Assembly (NCBI RefSeq): GCF_054482525.1
Contig: NZ_JBTHVG010000004.1
DNA: 64,000 nt
Origin: a plasmid
Strand: one strand, 5' to 3'
Shown here: one piece after another, positions 3,389 through 30,739 of the stretch
How positions within the stretch are numbered: the stretch's first letter is position 1
Layout: the number at the start of each line of letters is the position of its first letter
The notes under the pieces: model-generated
What the model was told of the DNA's origin: nothing
Database searches by the model: none
Seen by the model: only the letters and a program-made list of their open reading frames with translations
Translations under genes and position numbers: made by a program

Positions 3389-3918
3389 CTTATGCCTTTT
3401 TTATCTTCATTTGGGACCGTGCTTTTCTTCGGAGTATCATTATTCGTTAACTGCTGTTTATCAATAAAATTCCTGATGTTATCAAGTGCTTCCTTTGTTT
3501 TTAGAATGCGCTTGATATCCATTTCATCCCGCCCGGTCATTCTTTTTCCGGACAAAAGACGCTCAAGAAGCTCCTGTTTCGCATCAGGAGAATCTTTGGC
3601 GAGATCCATCAGGTTAAGCAAATCTTCACGATCGAGAGGAAAGAAGTATTTTACAAAATACTTGAAAAGCGAAAGAAAGTAGTATGCTGTCCATGCAATA
3701 CAGAAACCGATTCTGAGAAACTCATTGTCAACTATACAGAAATACAGGTATATAATCAGGAGAATAGGTAAAATCCATAATACTATAGCTAAAAAAATAT
3801 ATACGGGGATCAGGCGTCTGTATGCCCGTTCATGTTTATTTAGGATGAATAAAATCTTCTCCGCTTCTGAATCACACATAACATTCTCTTCCCATTTTTT
3901 CTGATACGTAATGTCCAC
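3385..3918 (-). CDS. Hypothetical membrane protein (two predicted TM helices, charged C-terminal domain)
   Basis: 177 aa; hydrophobic stretch LIPVYIFLAIVLWILPILLIIYLYFCIV followed by second hydrophobic segment. Confidence 0.45.
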   Translation of the reverse strand: MDITYQKKWEENVMCDSEAEKILFILNKHERAYRRLIPVYIFLAIVLWILPILLIIYLYFCIVDNEFLRIGFCIAWTAYYFLSLFKYFVKYFFPLDREDLLNLMDLAKDSPDAKQELLERLLSGKRMTGRDEMDIKRILKTKEALDNIRNFIDKQQLTNNDTPKKSTVPNEDKKGIR

Positions 3919-3934
3919 CTGTTATCAGGAGTGT

Positions 3935-4537
3935 TTATTGCCCAGAAATATTCTCCTGCTGTGCCTGCATCCTGAGCCACTTTTGTTCTAATGTCGCCAG
4001 TCTGCGACCGGCACTCTGTGCTTCAGAGTCTGAGACCTGCCCTTTGGGGTGACCATCCAGGCCATAACGTGGGACGCCGGCGACAGCTGTCCGCTGCAGA
4101 TATACGCGGCGGGATGTGATGCAGGACACTGCACAGAGCCATTCGTCCATGGTCAGTTCTGTCTCCGGGTGTTCTGCCAGAAATGCCGAAATATCATTGT
4201 TTATGCCAATTTTCAGGGGAATAAATCCACCACCTTCAGCACGAAGATGAGGAAACAGGGCCTTTATTTTTTCCACGCACTCGTGAGTATACTCACGGGT
4301 CCAGTGGGAGGGACGTGGAAAACGGTGTCTTTTCTTTTTCTTCTTCCTGGCTGGCGCTTCGGGGATATGTGTTTCGACGGCAGATGAATTTATTCCGGCG
4401 GGGGCTGATTCTGCCGTCTGTTCAGTAAATACAGGTGCGATAATATCTGTTTTTTCGGATAAGGACGGTGGCGAAAAAGTACGACGTTTTTTCACCACAA
4501 TGACGGGAGTTTTCCTTTCTTCCTGATATTTTCCCAT
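3935..4537 (-). CDS. finO: FinO/ProQ-family RNA chaperone-like protein
   Basis: 200 aa; Lys/Arg-rich N-terminal half and C-terminal region resembling FinO fold (..EWLCAVSCITSRRVYLQRTAVAGVPRYGLDG..). Confidence 0.6.
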   Translation of the reverse strand: MGKYQEERKTPVIVVKKRRTFSPPSLSEKTDIIAPVFTEQTAESAPAGINSSAVETHIPEAPARKKKKKRHRFPRPSHWTREYTHECVEKIKALFPHLRAEGGGFIPLKIGINNDISAFLAEHPETELTMDEWLCAVSCITSRRVYLQRTAVAGVPRYGLDGHPKGQVSDSEAQSAGRRLATLEQKWLRMQAQQENISGQ

Positions 4538-4712: not shown

Positions 4713-5765
4713 CTAAGGTTTGTTTTCTTCTTTTCTTATATTTATCTGGTAATCCTTATCAACAATGCCTGCTCTACTGTTTGCATTAATCATTGCTGGT
4801 CTGATCCATATTAGTTTGTTATTTTTCCTGCGAATATGTCCTCTGCGTAAGTGCATCCTTTTCGTCCCACCGGATTTTCCTGTTCCAGTATGATTACTTT
4901 GCACCTTAGTTTCAGACAGTTGCAATACTTTATAAGTATATGAAGGGCGCTTGTTTTTTTCAGGTGGCTGAACTTTACGACCATTTATGAATTTTCTTTC
5001 TGGTTTAGTGCTAAGTGTGACAGGACACACATTTTCGCAATTTAACACGCTACATGCCTGTATGAAAGCCTGTAGTTCATCGCGAGTATCCATAATAATT
5101 TGCGCATATAATCTTTCAATACTTCCCACCTGCTTTATCAAATCATCTTTAAATTCCATGCTTGTTATAAAAGGCTCTGCTTTGAAGTGTGCTGCATTAT
5201 ATTTGGCTACTCCATTCTCTTTTAATGTGTCGATTACAAGCCTGGATGCAGGCAATGTCCTGTCAGGTTCGTATTTAGTGAGTTTGTTGTTATATGGGAA
5301 AAACATTCCACCGACACCAAGAATCCATATTTTTAAATCATCAGACCATGAAACAGGAAGGATAAACACTCCGCCATCAATATAAGTGTTAAGGATTGAA
5401 TTACATCCCGGGATGGGTTCAAAACTCTGTCTGGCCTCCCAGCACAGGGCAATTCTTCTGGATGATGGTGATATATTAAAATCACCTATTTGGGTTTCTA
5501 CATTGTCTTTGAACCATGGTATTTCAAATGTTACAACTGGATATGGTAATCGTGCCAAATCGAAATGCGTCTGGCGGTATTCTTCTGGTTCAATAATATC
5601 GCAGCAGTTCGGTAAGATGAACTTAACACTACTGTCCAGCATATCAATGACCTGACGCATAATATATGATGTAAGAGGTGCATTTGACCTTAATCCTTTT
5701 TCCATGACAGACAGGTCTTTTATGGCTTCCTTAGTGTAATTTAGTGGAGTAATTGTATCTTTCAT
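4713..5765 (-). CDS. Hypothetical protein, AT-rich cargo; C-terminal basic motif shared with 39354..40445 product
   Basis: 350 aa; AT-rich relative to flanks; C-terminal TGKSGGTKRMHLRRGHIRRKNNKLIWIRP. Confidence 0.6.
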   Translation of the reverse strand: MKDTITPLNYTKEAIKDLSVMEKGLRSNAPLTSYIMRQVIDMLDSSVKFILPNCCDIIEPEEYRQTHFDLARLPYPVVTFEIPWFKDNVETQIGDFNISPSSRRIALCWEARQSFEPIPGCNSILNTYIDGGVFILPVSWSDDLKIWILGVGGMFFPYNNKLTKYEPDRTLPASRLVIDTLKENGVAKYNAAHFKAEPFITSMEFKDDLIKQVGSIERLYAQIIMDTRDELQAFIQACSVLNCENVCPVTLSTKPERKFINGRKVQPPEKNKRPSYTYKVLQLSETKVQSNHTGTGKSGGTKRMHLRRGHIRRKNNKLIWIRPAMINANSRAGIVDKDYQINIRKEENKP

Positions 5766-18974: not shown

Positions 18975-19700
18975 CCGCGCGAAAACCCCTGGCAGGCTGA
19001 CGCCTGCCGGAAACGCGGGGTGCAGCGCCTGCGGCGCTGCCGGCCCGGCTTTCCGGTCAGAAGGTAGTGTATGGCTGTATGCCAGGAACAGATGTGATAT
19101 TCCGTGACACTGTCACCGTTTATGGTTGTCTTTTATTGCGCCCACTTCGGCTCCCGGCTGCCTGGCGGCATCCGGTCGTCAGGCCCGACTCCGACAGGCA
19201 GCTGCTGGCGCACCCGCCAGTCTCCGCCGAACCCGCTGGCGCGGTTTCGGGCTGCCGCTACGGTCCGATGCGTGAAAACCCGGGCTTGCAGCGACCGTTA
19301 CGGTCGCGCCGCCCCTGTCGCGCCGTGACCTGCGCTCCCTGCACACCTGACGGTGTGTGAGGAAACTGCGCCTGATGGCGCAGCAGTCCTCCCTCCTGCC
19401 GCCACCCCTGCGGCCTGTTTCCCGCTGTGGACTTTCCGGGGGGCAGACGTAACCCCCTCCCGTTCCATCTGTCCAGGGTGAGATGCACCGGCCACAAAAT
19501 TTTTAGCCATGAACCCGGCAAAAAATTTTGCGTCCGCCCCCGGACAGCTGTCCCGTGAGGCGGTAAACGGGCCCCCATCGGAAAGGTCCACTGCGGGGAG
19601 AAACCCCGAAGAAGTGGACGGCAGGAGGAGCTTTCGCTCCTCTGAAGGGGCACATGAACGTCCCGTCGCCGGTATCCGGTTTATCTCACATCTTTCAGTC
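18975..19700 (+). promoter_or_regulatory. Leading-region repeat family B copy 1 (ssi/Frpo-like) upstream of ssb
   Basis: about 700 bp element with long near-identical stretches at 25355-26030 and partial copy at 28546-28895; ends at SD caggaggtt of ssb. Confidence 0.5.
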
Positions 19701-25354: not shown

Positions 25355-26030
25355 AACCCTGGCAGGCTTACGCCTGCCTGAAATGCAGGAGGGCCGCGCC
25401 TGCGGCGCTGCCCTTCCTGCCCGTCATGGTGTGAGGCATTTTTCTGTTATGTCGTTTCTGTTGTTCTGATTTCCGGAGGCGGGGACACCTTCGGCTCCCG
25501 GCTGCCTGGCGGCATCCGGTCGTCAGGCCCGACTCCGACAGGCAGCTGCTGGCGCACCCGCCAGTCTCCGCCGAACCCGCTGGCGCGGTTTCGGGCTGCC
25601 GCTACGGTCCGATGTCTGAAAAACCAGGCTTGCAGCGACCGTTCCGGTCGCGCCGCCCCTGTCGCGCCGGAAACGGCGCTCCCTGCACACCTGACGGTGT
25701 GTAAGGCCACTGCGCCTGATGGCGCAGTCAACCCTTCCGCCGCCACCCCTGCGGCCTGTTTCCCGCTGTGGACTTTCCGGGGGCTGGAGTAACCACATCC
25801 CGTTTCAGCAGTCCAGGGGAAGATATACCGTCCACAAAATTTTTAGCCATAAACCCGGCAAAAAATTTTGCGTCCGCCCCCGGACAGCTGCCCCGTGACG
25901 TGGTGACGGACGCCCCATCGGAAAGGTCCACTGCGGGGAGAAACCCCGAAGAAGTGGACGGCAGAAGGGGCTTTCGCCCCTCCGGGGAGCAACCGGTCGG
26001 CCCGGCGACCTGATTCAGCAGAAGGAGACG
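25355..26030 (+). promoter_or_regulatory. Leading-region repeat family B copy 2
   Basis: long identity with 18975-19700; ends just upstream of ORF 26036. Confidence 0.5.
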
Positions 26031-26829: not shown

Positions 26830-26893
26830 TTAACCCTTGCCGTCTGCCTGTGCAGGCGGCAGGATACGTTCAGACATCTCACCAGGAGGAACC

Positions 26894-27784
26894 GTGAGTA
26901 AGAAGAAAACCACCACGACGCCCACGCCGCATGATGCCGCGTTCCGGTCGTTCCTGGCGAATCCCGACGTCGCCAGAGATTTTCTGGAACTGCATCTTCC
27001 GGCGGAGTACCGGCAGTTGTGCGACCTGTCCACGCTGAAGCTGGAACCCGCCACCTTTGTTGAGCCGGACCTGCATCAGTACGCCAGCGATATCCTCTGG
27101 AGTGTGAAAACCACCGGGGGTGAAGACGGCTATGTTTATACGCTCATCGAGCACCAGAGCACCGAAAATCTGTACATGCCTTTCCGCATGTTACGTTACA
27201 GTGTGGCGGCGATGCAGAGACATCTGGAGCAGCACAAAACGTTGCCACTGGTGATTCCTGTGCTGTTCTATCATGGTGAGCGCAGCCCGTACCCGTACAG
27301 CATGAACTGGCTGGACTGTTTTGAGAATCCGGCACTTGCGGCTAAAATATACACAAAGCCGTTTCCGCTGGTTGATATCACTGTCGTTGATGACAATGAA
27401 ATCATGAACCATCGCCGGATGGCCGCACTGACGCTGCTGATGAAGCATATCCGCCATCGTGACATGATGGATCTGCTGGACAAACTCCCGCAGGTCATGG
27501 TGGAAATTTCAGACGAGCAGGTGCGTGTTCTGATTCATTACATCGTTAACGCAGGGGACTCTGTATCACCGGAATTTATGCGGGCGCTGGCTGAGCGTCT
27601 GCCGCAGCATGAGGATAAACTGATGACTATCGCAGAACGTCTTGAGCAAAAAGGTCGCCAGGAAGGAGCGCTTGAAAAAGCCCTGGCTATTGCGTGCCAG
27701 CTTCAGAAAATGGGGATGACGCCGGAGCAGATTAAGCAGGCTACCGGACTTTCCGAAGCTGAACTGAAAAAAATCATTCACTGA
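26894..27784 (+). CDS. Rpn-family (YhgA-like, PD-(D/E)XK Transposase_31) recombination-promoting nuclease
   Basis: GTG start after SD aggagg; N-terminal ..HDAAFRSFL.. and ..YTLIEHQS.. motifs typical of Rpn/YhgA proteins. Confidence 0.7.
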   Translation: MSKKKTTTTPTPHDAAFRSFLANPDVARDFLELHLPAEYRQLCDLSTLKLEPATFVEPDLHQYASDILWSVKTTGGEDGYVYTLIEHQSTENLYMPFRMLRYSVAAMQRHLEQHKTLPLVIPVLFYHGERSPYPYSMNWLDCFENPALAAKIYTKPFPLVDITVVDDNEIMNHRRMAALTLLMKHIRHRDMMDLLDKLPQVMVEISDEQVRVLIHYIVNAGDSVSPEFMRALAERLPQHEDKLMTIAERLEQKGRQEGALEKALAIACQLQKMGMTPEQIKQATGLSEAELKKIIH

Positions 27785-27796
27785 TGAGAGCATCAC

Positions 27797-27822
27797 AGCC
27801 CGGCAAAATGCCGGGCTTTTTT
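27797..27822 (+). terminator. Rho-independent terminator-like hairpin after rpn
   Basis: agcccggca-aaa-tgccgggct followed by tttttt. Confidence 0.5.
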
Positions 27823-27846
27823 GTCAGCAGGAGCAGAGAAAACAGT

Positions 27847-28041
27847 ATGACGCTTGCAGAACGTCTTATACAGAAAGGTTTCGACGAAGGTTTTAAAGAA
27901 GGTTTTAAGAAAGGTGCGCTTGAAGTGGCGCGGGAAGCAGCCTGCCGGCTGCGGGATATGGGCTGGACGCCGGAACGGATTCAGGAGGCGACCGGACTTT
28001 CCGGTGAAGAACTGAAAAAGCTGTTTCCTGATGAGCAGTAG
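27847..28041 (+). CDS. Small protein resembling the C-terminal domain of the upstream Rpn nuclease
   Basis: MTLAERLIQKG...WTPERIQEATGLSGEELKKL aligns with Rpn C-terminus MTIAERLEQKG...MTPEQIKQATGLSEAELKKI. Confidence 0.45.
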   Translation: MTLAERLIQKGFDEGFKEGFKKGALEVAREAACRLRDMGWTPERIQEATGLSGEELKKLFPDEQ

Positions 28042-28071
28042 CCTGACATTCTGCCAGGCTGTGAATCACGC

Positions 28072-28323
28072 TCACACATTCCCTGCCGTTTCCCCCAGTT
28101 CATTTTCCAGACGCCTGATGATATCTGCCTTGCGCATCCCCTGCATGTGAGGCAGCAGGTCACGGACTGAAAGTGCCTGGGTGGTCCTCCAGACGGTGAC
28201 GTCCACCTGTTCCGCATTTTCCCAGGCGTGCCATGTTCTCTGCGTCACGCCAAATTCTCTGGCCGCTTTTTCGCGTGACCATAGCATGCTTTTTCGCCAG
28301 ATTCGCAGTTCCCAGCCGGTCAT
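28072..28323 (-). CDS. HTH (Cro/XRE-like) DNA-binding protein
   Basis: 83 aa; ..REKAAREFGVTQRTWHAWE.. HTH; palindromic operators upstream. Confidence 0.55.
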   Translation of the reverse strand: MTGWELRIWRKSMLWSREKAAREFGVTQRTWHAWENAEQVDVTVWRTTQALSVRDLLPHMQGMRKADIIRRLENELGETAGNV

Positions 28324-28337
28324 AAAACACCTTTGAA

Positions 28338-28425
28338 AAAGTGAAAAAACTTCACTTTATTTTATCATCACAATTGCCAAATCAGCGCGATAAATAAGTG
28401 TAAAAAAGTGAAGAAATTTCACTTT
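28338..28425. promoter_or_regulatory. Two copies of palindrome AAAGTGAA-N-TTCACTTT upstream of HTH gene (operator candidates)
   Basis: aaagtgaaaaaacttcacttt at about 28338-28358 and aaagtgaagaaatttcacttt at about 28405-28425. Confidence 0.5.
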
Positions 28426-28545
28426 TTTTGTTTGTAAGTGTCGTGCGGTTTTCTCTGTTTTCACCTGTGCGGGAGTGGTGTGCCAGTGACCACCACATGC
28501 CATTGTTGTGCCGTCGTTTTTCTTCAGTCGCGCCGGATGCGGCGC

Positions 28546-28895
28546 TCCCTGCACACCTTACGGTGTGTAAGGCCACTGCGCCTGATGGCGCAGCTGTCTC
28601 TTGCCTGTCTGCCGCCGCACTGCGGCCTGTTCTCCGCAGACGGACTTTCCGGGGGTACATACACGACCACATCCCGTTTCAGTCGTCCAGGGGAGAGATG
28701 TACCAGCCACAAAACTTTTTGCCGCTGGCGTCAAAAACTTTTGCGTCTGCCCCCGGACAACTGCCCCGTGACGTGGTGAGCGTCCCCCGTCGGAAAGGTC
28801 CACTGCGGGGAAATACCCTAAGACCCGGACGGCAGAAGGAGCTTCGCTCCTCCGGGAAATGACCTGGCTGACCCGGCAGTCGTGACGATGAGGAG
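28546..28895 (+). promoter_or_regulatory. Leading-region repeat family B, partial copy 3
   Basis: matches the 3' two-thirds of copies at 18975-19700 and 25355-26030. Confidence 0.45.
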
Positions 28896-28900
28896 ACAAT

Positions 28901-29752
28901 GTGATGAATCAGACTTTACCCACTGCTGACCTGAATACTGCCGGCACGACAGATGTTATTCCGTCTGTGGCTATCGACCGCATCATCGCGCAGCGTAACG
29001 AAGGTATTGCACTATTCATGCAGGCGATGGAATGCCTGGCGACAGCGCGCAGGATTCTGCTCGATGCGTCAGGTGATATTTTTCTTTACGGGTTTGAAGA
29101 CTGCGTGACTGATTCCGTTCGTCGCATGGATAAGCCGGAAGAAGCGAAAAGGAATATCACCCGTCTTGCCGACCGGAAAATCTGGGACCGCCTGATGACA
29201 GATACGGGCATGTACACCTTCATGAGTTCATGCCAGCGTGATGAGTGGAACAGCCAGCTGATGAGCGACACCTGTCCTGAAATCACCCTGGACAATGTAC
29301 TGGCAACATTCCGCCATCTTAATACCAGCAAGATGCAGACGTTTGAACAGGGACTGATTGATGTCTACCGGAAATTGTCATGGGATTACAGAACCAATAA
29401 TCCCTGCCGTCTGGGCAAGAAAATCATTATTGAAAACATGCTGTACCGCTGGAGTAACGGGCGTGTGACGCTGGACTGCAGCGGACGGGAGGCACTGGAT
29501 GACCTGGTACGTCCTTTTTATCTGCTGGAGGGGCGAAACGTTCCTGACTTCCGGAGCAGCATCGGGGCGCAGTATGGTGAATTTCTCGGGAACGGCGACA
29601 ACGTCGGTAAGCTGTTAGAAGGGGAATATTTTACGGTGCGTGGCTACCAGAAAGGGACCGTACACATTGTCTTTAAGCGTCCTGACCTTGTTGAAAAACT
29701 GAATGATATTATTGCACGGCATTATCCTGGTGCATTGCCGCCACGAGTCTGA
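28901..29752 (+). CDS. Hypothetical protein, first leading-region gene next to oriT
   Basis: 283 aa; preceded by repeat B copy 3 and SD aggagacaatgtgATG; followed by terminator. Confidence 0.55.
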   Translation: MMNQTLPTADLNTAGTTDVIPSVAIDRIIAQRNEGIALFMQAMECLATARRILLDASGDIFLYGFEDCVTDSVRRMDKPEEAKRNITRLADRKIWDRLMTDTGMYTFMSSCQRDEWNSQLMSDTCPEITLDNVLATFRHLNTSKMQTFEQGLIDVYRKLSWDYRTNNPCRLGKKIIIENMLYRWSNGRVTLDCSGREALDDLVRPFYLLEGRNVPDFRSSIGAQYGEFLGNGDNVGKLLEGEYFTVRGYQKGTVHIVFKRPDLVEKLNDIIARHYPGALPPRV

Positions 29753-29761
29753 TTAAACAGA

Positions 29762-29795
29762 AAAGCCCTGGTATTTATGCCGGGGCTTTTTTTTC
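29762..29795 (+). terminator. Rho-independent terminator-like hairpin
   Basis: aaagccctgg-loop-ccggggc followed by T-run. Confidence 0.5.
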
Positions 29796-29837
29796 TGTAA
29801 TCATCATAATCTCAGAACACGATGTGACATTGTCACA

Positions 29838-30179
29838 TCAATTGTTGTTCATATCGATGCCATCTTTCCTGCCTGAATCTGTCTTTTTAGGTGCTGTTTT
29901 AGAGGAAGAACGGCGGGATGGTTTTTTCGATTCTGCTTCCCGAATAATGTCACGAAGTGCCTTCTCTCCTACTTCATACCCTGCATTTTTAAGCGTGTCA
30001 CGAACATCTGCCAGTGTATAACCCTTTGTCCTTACCAGGACAATGATGTCATCACGAATGGCATCAAGAAAATCACGCAATGTTTTCCGTTGAGCGGTGA
30101 GGTCCGGCAATTCCGATAAGGCAGCTTTTGCCAGCTGGATGTCATCATCTGAGTAAAATTTTTTAGAAGCCATTGGCAC
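29838..30179 (-). CDS. Small basic DNA-binding-like protein adjacent to oriT
   Basis: 113 aa; ..KGYTLADVRDTLKNAGYEV.. HTH-like; Lys/Ser-rich C-terminus. Confidence 0.45.
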   Translation of the reverse strand: MPMASKKFYSDDDIQLAKAALSELPDLTAQRKTLRDFLDAIRDDIIVLVRTKGYTLADVRDTLKNAGYEVGEKALRDIIREAESKKPSRRSSSKTAPKKTDSGRKDGIDMNNN

Positions 30180-30184
30180 TTTCT

Positions 30185-30370
30185 CTCCGTTTCATGTTGA
30201 AGTCTGATTTTATCATCAAAAACTGACTCCTGGCAGGGCTGCGCCCTGCTTCTGCCGTCTGCATAAGACTATGATGCACAAAAATAACAGGCTATAATGG
30301 CCTGAAAAACGGGACAGGATGTGCAATTGTAATACCGTCACACGCGACGCTATTACAATTGCCATCTGGT
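30185..30370. other. oriT: oriT region (origin of transfer) upstream of nikA
   Basis: perfect 12 bp inverted repeat gcaattgtaata / tattacaattgc at about 30323-30363 and GC-rich IR gcagggc..gccctgc; immediately upstream of nikA. Confidence 0.6.
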
Positions 30371-30406
30371 CAGGGCTTCGCCCCGACACCCCGTAAGGAG
30401 CCTGAA

Positions 30407-30739
30407 GTGAGTGATAGTGCGGTAAGAAAGAAAAGTGAGGTACGGCAAAAGACAGTTGTCAGGACACTCAGATTCTCTCCTGTTGAGGATGAAACCATCA
30501 GGAAAAAAGCTGAAGATTCCGGACTTACTGTATCTGCTTACATCCGAAATGCAGCACTGAATAAGCGAATTAACTCCCGTACAGATGATGCTTTTCTGAA
30601 GGAGTTAATGAGACTGGGAAGGATGCAGAAGCATCTGTTTGTTCAGGGAAAAAGAACCGGTGACAAGGAATACGCAGAAGTGCTTGTTGCCATAACCGAA
30701 CTTACAAATACATTGCGTAAACAGTTAATGGAAGGTTGA
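30407..30739 (+). CDS. nikA: Relaxosome accessory protein NikA (RHH, oriT-binding)
   Basis: GTG start (MSDSAVRKK..) within track ORF; matches IncI1 NikA as recalled. Confidence 0.85.
   Translation: MSDSAVRKKSEVRQKTVVRTLRFSPVEDETIRKKAEDSGLTVSAYIRNAALNKRINSRTDDAFLKELMRLGRMQKHLFVQGKRTGDKEYAEVLVAITELTNTLRKQLMEG

Follow-up and report, generated by a model that had tools for sequence, protein, structure and literature searches.

A conserved XRE-type regulator gene with two putative operators at its own promoter, placed antisense to the leading-region genes of IncI1-complex plasmids

The window, meaning the whole 64,000-nucleotide stretch of DNA that was analysed, comes from a plasmid of the IncI1-complex (typed IncI-gamma/K1, MOBP, MPF_I). 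NikA and NikB are encoded at 30.4-33.4 kb, and the leading region extends from there toward lower coordinates. Its content includes ssb, a ParB-like gene, psiB, psiA, ardA, an Rpn nuclease gene, and a DUF4942 gene, all carried on the plus strand. A preliminary description had placed a gene for an 83-aa helix-turn-helix (HTH) protein on the opposite strand, between the Rpn module and an oriT-proximal repeat, and both the ORF and its two flanking elements are found as described:

26837-28041, plus strand: Rpn module, convergent with the HTH gene and ending 30 bp away from it.
28072-28323, minus strand: XRE-type HTH gene (R64 'ygeA', pESBL 'Hp21', WP_000148286-type) with an ATG start, coding for 83 aa.
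28328-28334, minus strand: Shine-Dalgarno-like AAAGGTG, 6-7 nt before the ATG, as read from the sequence.
28338-28358, centre 28348, no strand: proximal putative operator AAAGTGAA-N5-TTCACTTT, exact match, AAAGTGAAaaaacTTCACTTT.
28364-28359 (hexamer) and 28367-28366 (TG), minus strand: predicted extended -10 TGaTAAAAT (TGATAAAAT), likewise read from the sequence.
28405-28425, centre 28415, no strand: distal putative operator AAAGTGAA-N5-TTCACTTT, exact match, AAAGTGAAgaaatTTCACTTT.
28527-28856, plus strand: ssi3/Frpo-type single-strand promoter repeat, located between the HTH gene and oriT/nikA and outside the operator module.
28901-29752, divergent from the HTH gene: DUF4942 gene, driven by the ssi3 repeat.

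The ssi3 element is one of three ssi/Frpo-type repeats on the plus strand of the window, the others being located at 19317-19642 (79% identity to ssi3) and 25661-25986 (81%). Elements ssi1-3 have been described for IncI1 (PMC12672017). The minus (T) strand of the ssi3 repeat has a predicted folding energy of -130.6 kcal/mol (z -9.85), and the homology that defines the repeat begins approximately 100 bp beyond the distal operator. No credible RNA family was identified by an Rfam search of positions 27000-30500.

Plasmids of the IncI complex are among the main vehicles of ESBL and AmpC resistance genes. Their leading regions are now seen as anti-defence islands, whose genes are read from single-stranded DNA during the first minutes following transfer. 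The HTH gene is a conserved feature of this region. The 1.1-kb stretch surrounding it is present in 2042 PLSDB records, chiefly from Escherichia, Salmonella, and Shigella, and about 2000 IncI-complex records in this database carry the HTH-gene region. The wider family extends to approximately 3700 plasmid records. Annotations of about 2000 plasmids describe the product of the HTH gene as a helix-turn-helix regulator, and the family has been studied so far through transposon screens only.

The protein sequence opens MTGWELRIWRKSMLWSREKAAREFGVTQRTWHAWEN. In sources it appears as YgeA, a name derived from R64 coordinates, and the copy in pESBL-EA11, termed Hp21 (68116-68367, minus strand), is about 98% identical and occupies the same position. 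The match of the 83-aa protein to the Pfam model HTH_31 (E=6.1e-5) scores 23.7 bits against a gathering score of 27, and all 37 aligned family members match the same model (best E 7e-7), 24 of which also match HTH_3. The same 37 members match phrog_6962, a group of unknown function. An AF2 model of the protein (pLDDT 90.1) has five helices, at residues 3-12, 17-24, 28-35, 42-60, and 65-76, the first four of which superpose at about 2 A on SinR, CapH-N, HipB, Aca2, and C.AhdI. Foldseek comparisons of the predicted model with SinR, CapH-N, HipB, and C.AhdI yield probabilities of 0.96-1.00 and rmsd values of 1.8-2.3 A over about 50 residues. Membership of the XRE superfamily is thus well supported by sequence profiles and by the predicted fold.

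The gene is monocistronic, with the RBS and ATG directly after the promoter, no upstream ORF in the predicted transcript, and a convergent downstream neighbour. Comparison with the copy in a pESI-like Salmonella megaplasmid gives a dN of 0.087 and a dS of 1.19 (dN/dS approximately 0.07), which indicates that the gene is real and under strong purifying selection. A profile search returned 539 relatives (E<=0.001), and among the matches listed with an organism name all are from Enterobacterales. The family comprises 87 cluster representatives at 50% identity (E<=1e-10) and includes 14 phage records. PADLOC models do not assign the 83-aa protein to a defence system, the best score being a marginal mad1 match (E=0.0033, 15.7 bits) over 28 HTH residues. 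NCBIfam likewise provides no family assignment, with antitoxin models scoring 12.7-13.5 bits against cut-offs of 62-79. The HTH gene is an uncharacterised member of a familiar regulator class.

Two transposon screens include members of this family. In pESBL, Hp21 was classified as non-essential (probability 1.00) and was dispensable for both maintenance and transfer, and in pOXA-48 the family member Orf15 was classed NE. Because both genes are dispensable, these screens provide no phenotype in support of any role. Standard screens of this type relied on permissive laboratory strains as recipients. Two proteins with suggestive names were set aside. The F-plasmid 'ygeA' of PMC9849209 has only its coordinate-based name in common with the R64 gene, and no homology has been shown. 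The essential pOXA-48 regulator orf20 (DNDJGHEP_0014) encodes a different XRE protein of 159 aa placed after nuc; Table S1 of PMC12365149 and Pfam scans point instead to Orf15 as the relative. An essential repressor akin to the kil/kor systems was also entertained and then dropped, given that Orf15, the true homologue, is non-essential.

Immediately upstream of the HTH gene lie two palindromes, which had been reported in the preliminary description as being about 67 bp apart. Both are exact, and their centres are separated by exactly 67 bp. The distal palindrome extends further to 11-nt perfect arms, AAAAAAGTGAA and TTCACTTTTTT (28402-28428). The proximal palindrome begins 1 nt after the -10 hexamer, and 14 nt separate its other end from the ATG. 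In a folding model of the T-strand, the two elements form small separate hairpins, and the predicted energies of the corresponding RNA stems range from -6.3 to -9.5 kcal/mol.

The same description proposed searching the rest of the plasmid for this sequence, and no third copy was found. When up to two mismatches are permitted, AAAGTGAA-N5-TTCACTTT occurs twice in the 64-kb window against an expectation of 0.03, and none of 100 shuffled sequences yielded two or more copies. GTGAA-N5-TTCAC has no other occurrence in the window. The relaxed core AAGTG-N9-CACTT (one mismatch allowed) gave chance-level matches alone, both in the window and in a further 24.6 kb taken from a near-identical plasmid, which is 99.9% identical to the window across the 1.1-kb query region. 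In a scan of 100,044 species genomes for the exact site, run to find candidate host targets, the matches listed are unrelated and at chance level, with Enterobacteriaceae absent among them. The 65-aa ORF that RefSeq places across the operators is not accepted here as a gene, since an A-run within it differs in length by 1-3 nt between plasmids.

The extended -10 element predicts a transcription start near position 28352 on the minus strand, about 7 nt downstream of the hexamer and within the left arm of the proximal palindrome. Relative to this predicted start, the centre of the distal operator is located at approximately -63. The sequence offers no convincing match to a -35 element for the regulator promoter. 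Furthermore, consensus promoter scans of both strands in 13 homologous intergenic regions revealed neither a consistent -35/-10 pair for the regulator nor a consistent divergent promoter. The start site remains a prediction because a recognizable -35 element is lacking and because such simple consensus scans miss the promoter.

Homologous loci were collected from plasmids whose encoded proteins share 35-98% identity. Among homologues at 35-86% identity from other Enterobacterales plasmids, one or two palindromes are nearly always present in the register AAGTG-N9-CACTT, and homologues at 47-86% identity have a palindrome of this register at the position of the proximal operator. Three arrangements were observed:

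I-complex plasmids and the pESI-like Salmonella megaplasmid: GTGAA-type palindromes (one GTGTA half per pESI site), spaced 67 bp apart.
Enterobacter, Pectobacterium, Salmonella, and other homologues at 47-66% identity: two copies of AAGTGCA(G/A)-N3-(C/T)TGCACTT, spaced 57, 55, 54, 47, or 45 bp apart.
Pantoea, Erwinia, and phage-plasmid-like element homologues: one site in the AAGTG-N9-CACTT register, to which spacing does not apply.

The second site is kept in the pESI-like plasmid and at seven other loci (L004, L013, L014, L017, L140, L142, and L143). Most two-site loci have TAAAAT or TAATAT just ahead of the proximal site, whose centre is 23-27 bp upstream of the ATG, and one of these hexamers abuts the proximal palindrome at eight loci (L003, L004, L013, L014, L017, L140, L142, and L144). 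In an alignment of seven plasmids, with variation counted against the pESI-like copy, 28 of the 37 columns of the inter-operator spacer vary. The corresponding counts are 2 of 16 columns for the proximal half-sites, 4 of 16 for the distal half-sites, 2 of 14 for the stretch between operator and ATG, and none of 9 for the extended -10 element.

The sequence of the sites also changes together with the protein. GTGAA half-sites are found only with Gln27 and GTGCA(G/A) half-sites with Leu27, where residue 27 is position 2 of the predicted recognition helix, and the pESI-like copy combines Leu27 with mixed GTGAA/GTGTA halves. The two sites of any one plasmid have the same sequence, which fits a single sequence-specific binder, unlike independent hairpins. 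Taken together, the conservation footprint, the co-variation at residue 27, and the identity of paired sites argue for one sequence-specific, plasmid-encoded binder and against independent hairpins or a host-factor site. The observed spacings (67, 57, 55, 54, 47, and 45 bp) differ in steps of about 10 bp and all fall within approximately one third of a helical turn, which suggests face-of-helix constraints and cooperativity, an argument that is post hoc and corresponds to roughly p 0.03. The natural variants L009 and L011 carry weakened operators with non-compensated changes alongside an identical protein, indicating that tight repression, if it occurs, is not always maintained.

These observations favour a model in which the 83-aa protein is probably a dimeric XRE-type autorepressor that binds both palindromes, the proximal one covering its own predicted start. 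A protein dimer would occupy each of the two 21-bp palindromes upstream of its gene. Because the proximal palindrome starts one base after the -10 element and spans the predicted start, a dimer bound there would block RNA polymerase and thereby establish negative autoregulation. The distal palindrome would serve as a second site for the same protein, most likely strengthening repression through cooperative binding or formation of a small loop, and it may also stop transcription that enters the intergenic region from either side. Since operator copies occur nowhere else on the plasmid, the direct regulon would presumably consist of the gene's own intergenic region. The core of the original proposal, a Cro/XRE-like autoregulated repressor, is well supported by the HTH fold and by the same-register palindromes that accompany diverged homologues. 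Overall, the locus encodes a real, conserved, and very probably self-repressing XRE-type regulator with two operators.

A repressor that has itself as its sole target is functionally unsatisfying, and the most interesting feature of the HTH gene is its antisense placement. The incoming T-strand serves as the template for leading-region genes, which are transcribed via hairpin promoters (PMC12672017, PMC11541004). The plus-strand location of the leading genes makes the minus strand the T-strand, and the minus strand is the coding strand of the HTH gene. The gene therefore should not be transcribable before second-strand synthesis; it would be silent on incoming single-stranded DNA, and its expression would have to wait until a complementary strand exists. 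The HTH homologue points against the leading genes in all 12 leading-region contexts examined, where the neighbours on the NikA side include PsiA/B, ArdA, DUF1281, DUF932, DUF5983, and N6 methylases. The exceptions to this orientation are an IncL-type operon form and non-leading contexts. A speculative and rather unlikely extension is that the family acts as a 'second-strand sensor' of conjugative plasmids, with an antisense gene that is silent on single-stranded DNA and is switched on by conversion to double-stranded DNA, after which the two phased operators shut down or insulate neighbouring establishment and anti-defence genes. Such a protein might also act on targets in the host or on a co-resident plasmid.

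The sole candidate for a leading-region target is the divergent ssi3-DUF4942 unit, for which the evidence of a divergent double-strand promoter is weak. If such a promoter exists, the autorepressor model could be extended to a two-way switch, an extension that we regard as possible but unlikely. The repressor would also shut a double-stranded DNA promoter reading into DUF4942 (GTGAAA-16-TATCAT, 28341-28368, plus strand), which overlaps the proximal operator and reads through the distal operator and ssi3. The arrangement could operate as a timer, whereby a repressor that is expressible only after second-strand synthesis silences DUF4942 on the double-stranded plasmid. This promoter is the sole plus-strand sigma-70-like match upstream of DUF4942 and is kept in the pESI-like copy, but the match is weak (9/12), and its conservation is not independent evidence because the sequence is the reverse complement of elements that are already conserved. 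The invariable orientation of the HTH gene in leading regions would suit a timer, as would the findings that almost all other leading genes are oriented so as to allow transcription from the T-strand (PMC11541004) and that leading-gene expression falls after conversion to double-stranded DNA (PMC9849209, PMC12672017). However, promoters of the ssi/Frpo type are thought to turn off by the mere loss of their hairpins in double-stranded DNA (PMC12672017). The divergent gene also varies by plasmid, being DUF4942, DUF1281, small ORFs, or a Gp49/HTH pair, and the scans described above provide no consistent divergent promoter in other homologues. Finally, transposon insertions in Hp21 cause no maintenance or transfer phenotype.

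Other explanations would assign the palindromes or the protein to different functions. It is improbable that the palindromes are RNA or DNA hairpins instead of protein-binding sites, working weakly in both directions as intrinsic terminators or insulators with A and T runs on either side. The 11-bp distal stem is followed by T6-T7 on both strands (RNA -9.0 to -9.5 kcal/mol), and stems in homologues are stronger (-11.3 and -13.9 kcal/mol), but the IncI1 stems are A/T-rich with only two G-C pairs, and a terminator scan makes no call. In addition, the proximal palindrome sits between the -10 element and the RBS of the very gene that would be terminated, and the predicted start within its left arm would leave the hairpin absent from the mRNA. 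The sharing of one sequence by both hairpins of each plasmid, its co-variation with the protein, and the uncompensated changes in L009 and L011 also conflict with this explanation. We find it very doubtful that the palindromes are instead single-stranded DNA features of the ssi3 promoter or priming signal that act on the T-strand. Their proximity to ssi3 (about 100 bp) and the small hairpins of the T-strand model are compatible with such a role, but the palindromes lie outside the ssi homology, and neither the 19.3-kb nor the 25.7-kb ssi copy contains them. In the pESI-like plasmid, the ssi side is cut short by an insertion sequence, yet the palindromes are retained beside the HTH gene; they also accompany HTH homologues whose upstream regions have no ssi similarity.

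The preliminary description also suggested that the regulator might gate the Rpn module, and this proposal did not hold. There is no operator near the Rpn start at 26.8 kb, 1.5 kb away, and homologues adjoin unrelated genes, including those for an N6 methylase, PsiA, UmuDC, and PemK/MazE. Control of the Rpn nuclease module, or an antitoxin-like role alongside a toxic neighbouring gene, is highly improbable, notwithstanding the convergent Rpn gene end only 30 bp away, the preservation of this linkage in the pESI-like plasmid, and a weak sequence resemblance to the HTH domains of the HipB and MqsA antitoxins. The HTH gene has no co-transcribed partner, and no toxicity follows from its disruption in pESBL or pOXA-48. 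There is scarcely any prospect that the palindromes belong to a host factor such as CRP, whose consensus is TGTGA-N6-TCACA. The GTGA-N7-TCAC pattern within the sites resembles a CRP site superficially, but its spacing is one base longer. Moreover, in related plasmids of the same hosts the half-sites become GTGCAG together with the plasmid HTH protein, whereas a site for a host factor should stay constant.

The value of the autorepressor model depends on its reach. If the protein regulates only itself, it is one more small autorepressor and the gains are modest: a defined candidate operator motif, AAGTG-N9-CACTT, and a corrected annotation of the operator region, to which a 65-aa ORF is at present assigned. 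If a role beyond self-regulation is true, the HTH gene becomes a candidate for the unexplained shut-off of leading-region expression after establishment.

Among proteins with solved structures, the closest relative in a profile search against PDB sequences is Aca2 (7ezy_A, E=6.2e-5, residues 1-52), followed by HipB; other Aca2 entries score E 0.08-0.33. Aca2 from phage ZF40 (PDB 7ezy, 7vjo, 7b5j) is an anti-CRISPR-associated autorepressor and is also the top Foldseek match of the 83-aa protein. It controls its own expression through two inverted repeats in its promoter region (PMC6765145). Like the 83-aa protein, it is a small HTH protein encoded by a mobile element, with one site on the core promoter and one offset, and the two share about 45% identity over the first 38 residues, with a common MT-(Y/W)EL...AARE-G-V-(S/T)-R-(S/T)-W--WE pattern. 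However, Aca2 is longer (116-125 aa), and its alpha/beta C-terminal dimerization domain is unmatched, with alignments stopping at residue 52 and two helices (42-60 and 65-76) present in its place here. Over the full length the two superpose poorly (rmsd 4-10 A, TM 0.35-0.42 on the target), and DUF1870, the Aca2 family, does not match the 83-aa protein at E<=1 or its 37 relatives at E<=0.01. The aca2 gene is located downstream of acr, whereas the HTH gene is monocistronic and does not follow an anti-CRISPR or anti-defence gene. The operators are also distinct, with TTCG-N6/8-CGAA for Aca2 and GTGAA-N5-TTCAC here. The second Aca2 repeat falls within the 5' UTR, where the protein binds it in RNA form, but no full hairpin is expected in the mRNA of the HTH gene. 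RNA-level control in the style of Aca2 was set aside because the conserved -10 element abuts the proximal palindrome and places the start within its left arm. The 83-aa protein is thus only distantly related to Aca2, through the DNA-binding domain.

A second parallel is provided by the C proteins of restriction-modification (R-M) systems such as C.AhdI and C.BclI, which are among the structural matches. These small XRE-fold dimers autoregulate via two adjacent palindromic operators, and once a mobile element has entered a new cell they produce expression that is delayed and self-limiting. Unlike C proteins, the IncI1 gene has no R-M gene co-transcribed with it or adjacent to it in the window, and its operators lie 67 bp apart and lack the C-box sequence, whereas C-boxes are adjacent to each other. 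C proteins activate as well as repress, and there is no hint of activation here. HipB and MqsA, which give weak HTH-profile matches, are likewise palindrome-binding autorepressors, but the HTH gene has no adjacent toxin gene, its disruption is harmless, and the scores are far below the family cut-offs.

A location near oriT and a putative repressor role link the protein to ArdK (IncN/IncW), KorC (IncP/IncL), and YggA/Orf35 (IncI/IncM), which are plasmid-encoded near-oriT repressors of genes that are important just after transfer; the YggA homologue Orf35, for instance, represses nikAB-traH. These proteins have no detectable sequence relationship to the 83-aa protein, and they use several operator sites across the plasmid, whereas its putative sites are at its own promoter only. 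In the Pectobacterium relative, the leading region that holds the HTH homologue also contains an ArdK gene.

The nearest comparison is with the protein's own plasmid family (R64 YgeA, pESBL Hp21, pOXA-48 Orf15; phrog_6962), whose members share the N-terminus and the operator register. In IncL/M-type members, Orf15 is encoded by the second gene of an operon that comprises Orf14, Orf15, an Mrr-type nuclease (Orf16), and further genes. The position of these relatives ahead of a nuclease gene (Mrr_cat) recalls the R-M C proteins. The Orf15-type palindrome, AATGTTCA-N4-TGAACATT, differs from the IncI1 site; in the IncL relative, this 24-bp palindrome is located over the -35 element of the operon promoter.

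The two predicted operators that precede the 83-aa HTH gene vary among plasmids in which the encoded protein does not. When the equivalents of window 28338-28425 were compared, the two operators of pO113-EH41 (L011) were found to share one C-to-T change in their right halves (TTCAC to TTCAT), and the IncK2/Z plasmid p14EC033g (L009) carries two changes, which are confined to the distal operator. The HTH protein is identical in both plasmids despite these differences. Possible explanations for such changes are selection favouring weaker repression and gene conversion acting between the operators.

Three loci on other plasmids with homologues of the HTH gene carry palindromes or regulators:

L002 (pOXA-48-type plasmid), 5452-5475: 24-bp palindrome AAAATGTTCAAATATGAACATTTT, overlapping the predicted -35 element (TGAACA) of the Orf14-Orf15-Orf16 operon
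L005 (Klebsiella IncFII/MPF_I plasmid), about 3774-3976: three related palindromes, CACAGATTCTGTG, TGCAGATTCTGCA and CGCAGAATCTGCG, upstream of the HTH homologue
L013 (Pectobacterium versatile plasmid), 2397-2699: ArdK-family regulator gene that shares its leading region with the HTH homologue, at a distance of 1.1 kb

The L002 palindrome is a likely operator for the IncL family member. In this operon, Orf14 is followed by Orf15, which is the HTH protein, and then by Orf16, a Mrr-type nuclease, and the layout of putative operator, HTH gene and nuclease resembles the arrangement of controller proteins ahead of a nuclease. The L005 homologue (38% identical) is preceded by three palindromes rather than two, with the third located about 215 bp before the ATG. 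The ArdK gene and the HTH homologue occur together in L013, and therefore some plasmids have both kinds of leading-region regulator.

Four further features of the window lie in or near this region:

27784-28041, plus strand: 85-aa ORF, directly 3' of the Rpn nuclease gene
28357-28554, minus strand: 65-aa 'hypothetical protein' in the RefSeq annotation, spanning both operators and the -10 box
29838-30179, minus strand: R64 YggA, 113-aa gene between the DUF4942 gene and oriT
19317-19642, 25661-25986 and 28527-28856, plus strand: three ssi/Frpo-type single-strand promoter repeats (79-91% mutual identity)

The 65-aa ORF is most likely not a gene, because its frame is broken by an A-run whose length differs by 1-3 nt among otherwise near-identical plasmids. 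L017 and L143, two other loci with HTH homologues, have comparable spurious ORFs annotated across their operators.

YggA is labelled 'MobC' by PGAP. Since its pCTX-M3 homologue, Orf35, represses nikA, nikB and traH 23-80 fold (PMC6112013), YggA is probably the transfer-operon repressor on this plasmid. The region would thus hold a second minus-strand regulator in addition to the HTH gene.

The 85-aa ORF is a diverged duplicate of the C-terminal ~80 residues of the neighbouring Rpn nuclease. Its DNA shares 72-75% identity with 27623-27771, its product matches the C-terminal part of TIGR01784 (E=5e-8), and it has the look of a small C-terminal Rpn partner protein in free-standing form.

The ssi/Frpo-type repeats correspond to ssi1-3 of ColIb-P9, and the minus strand of the third (28527-28856) folds with a predicted energy of -130.6 kcal/mol (z -9.85).
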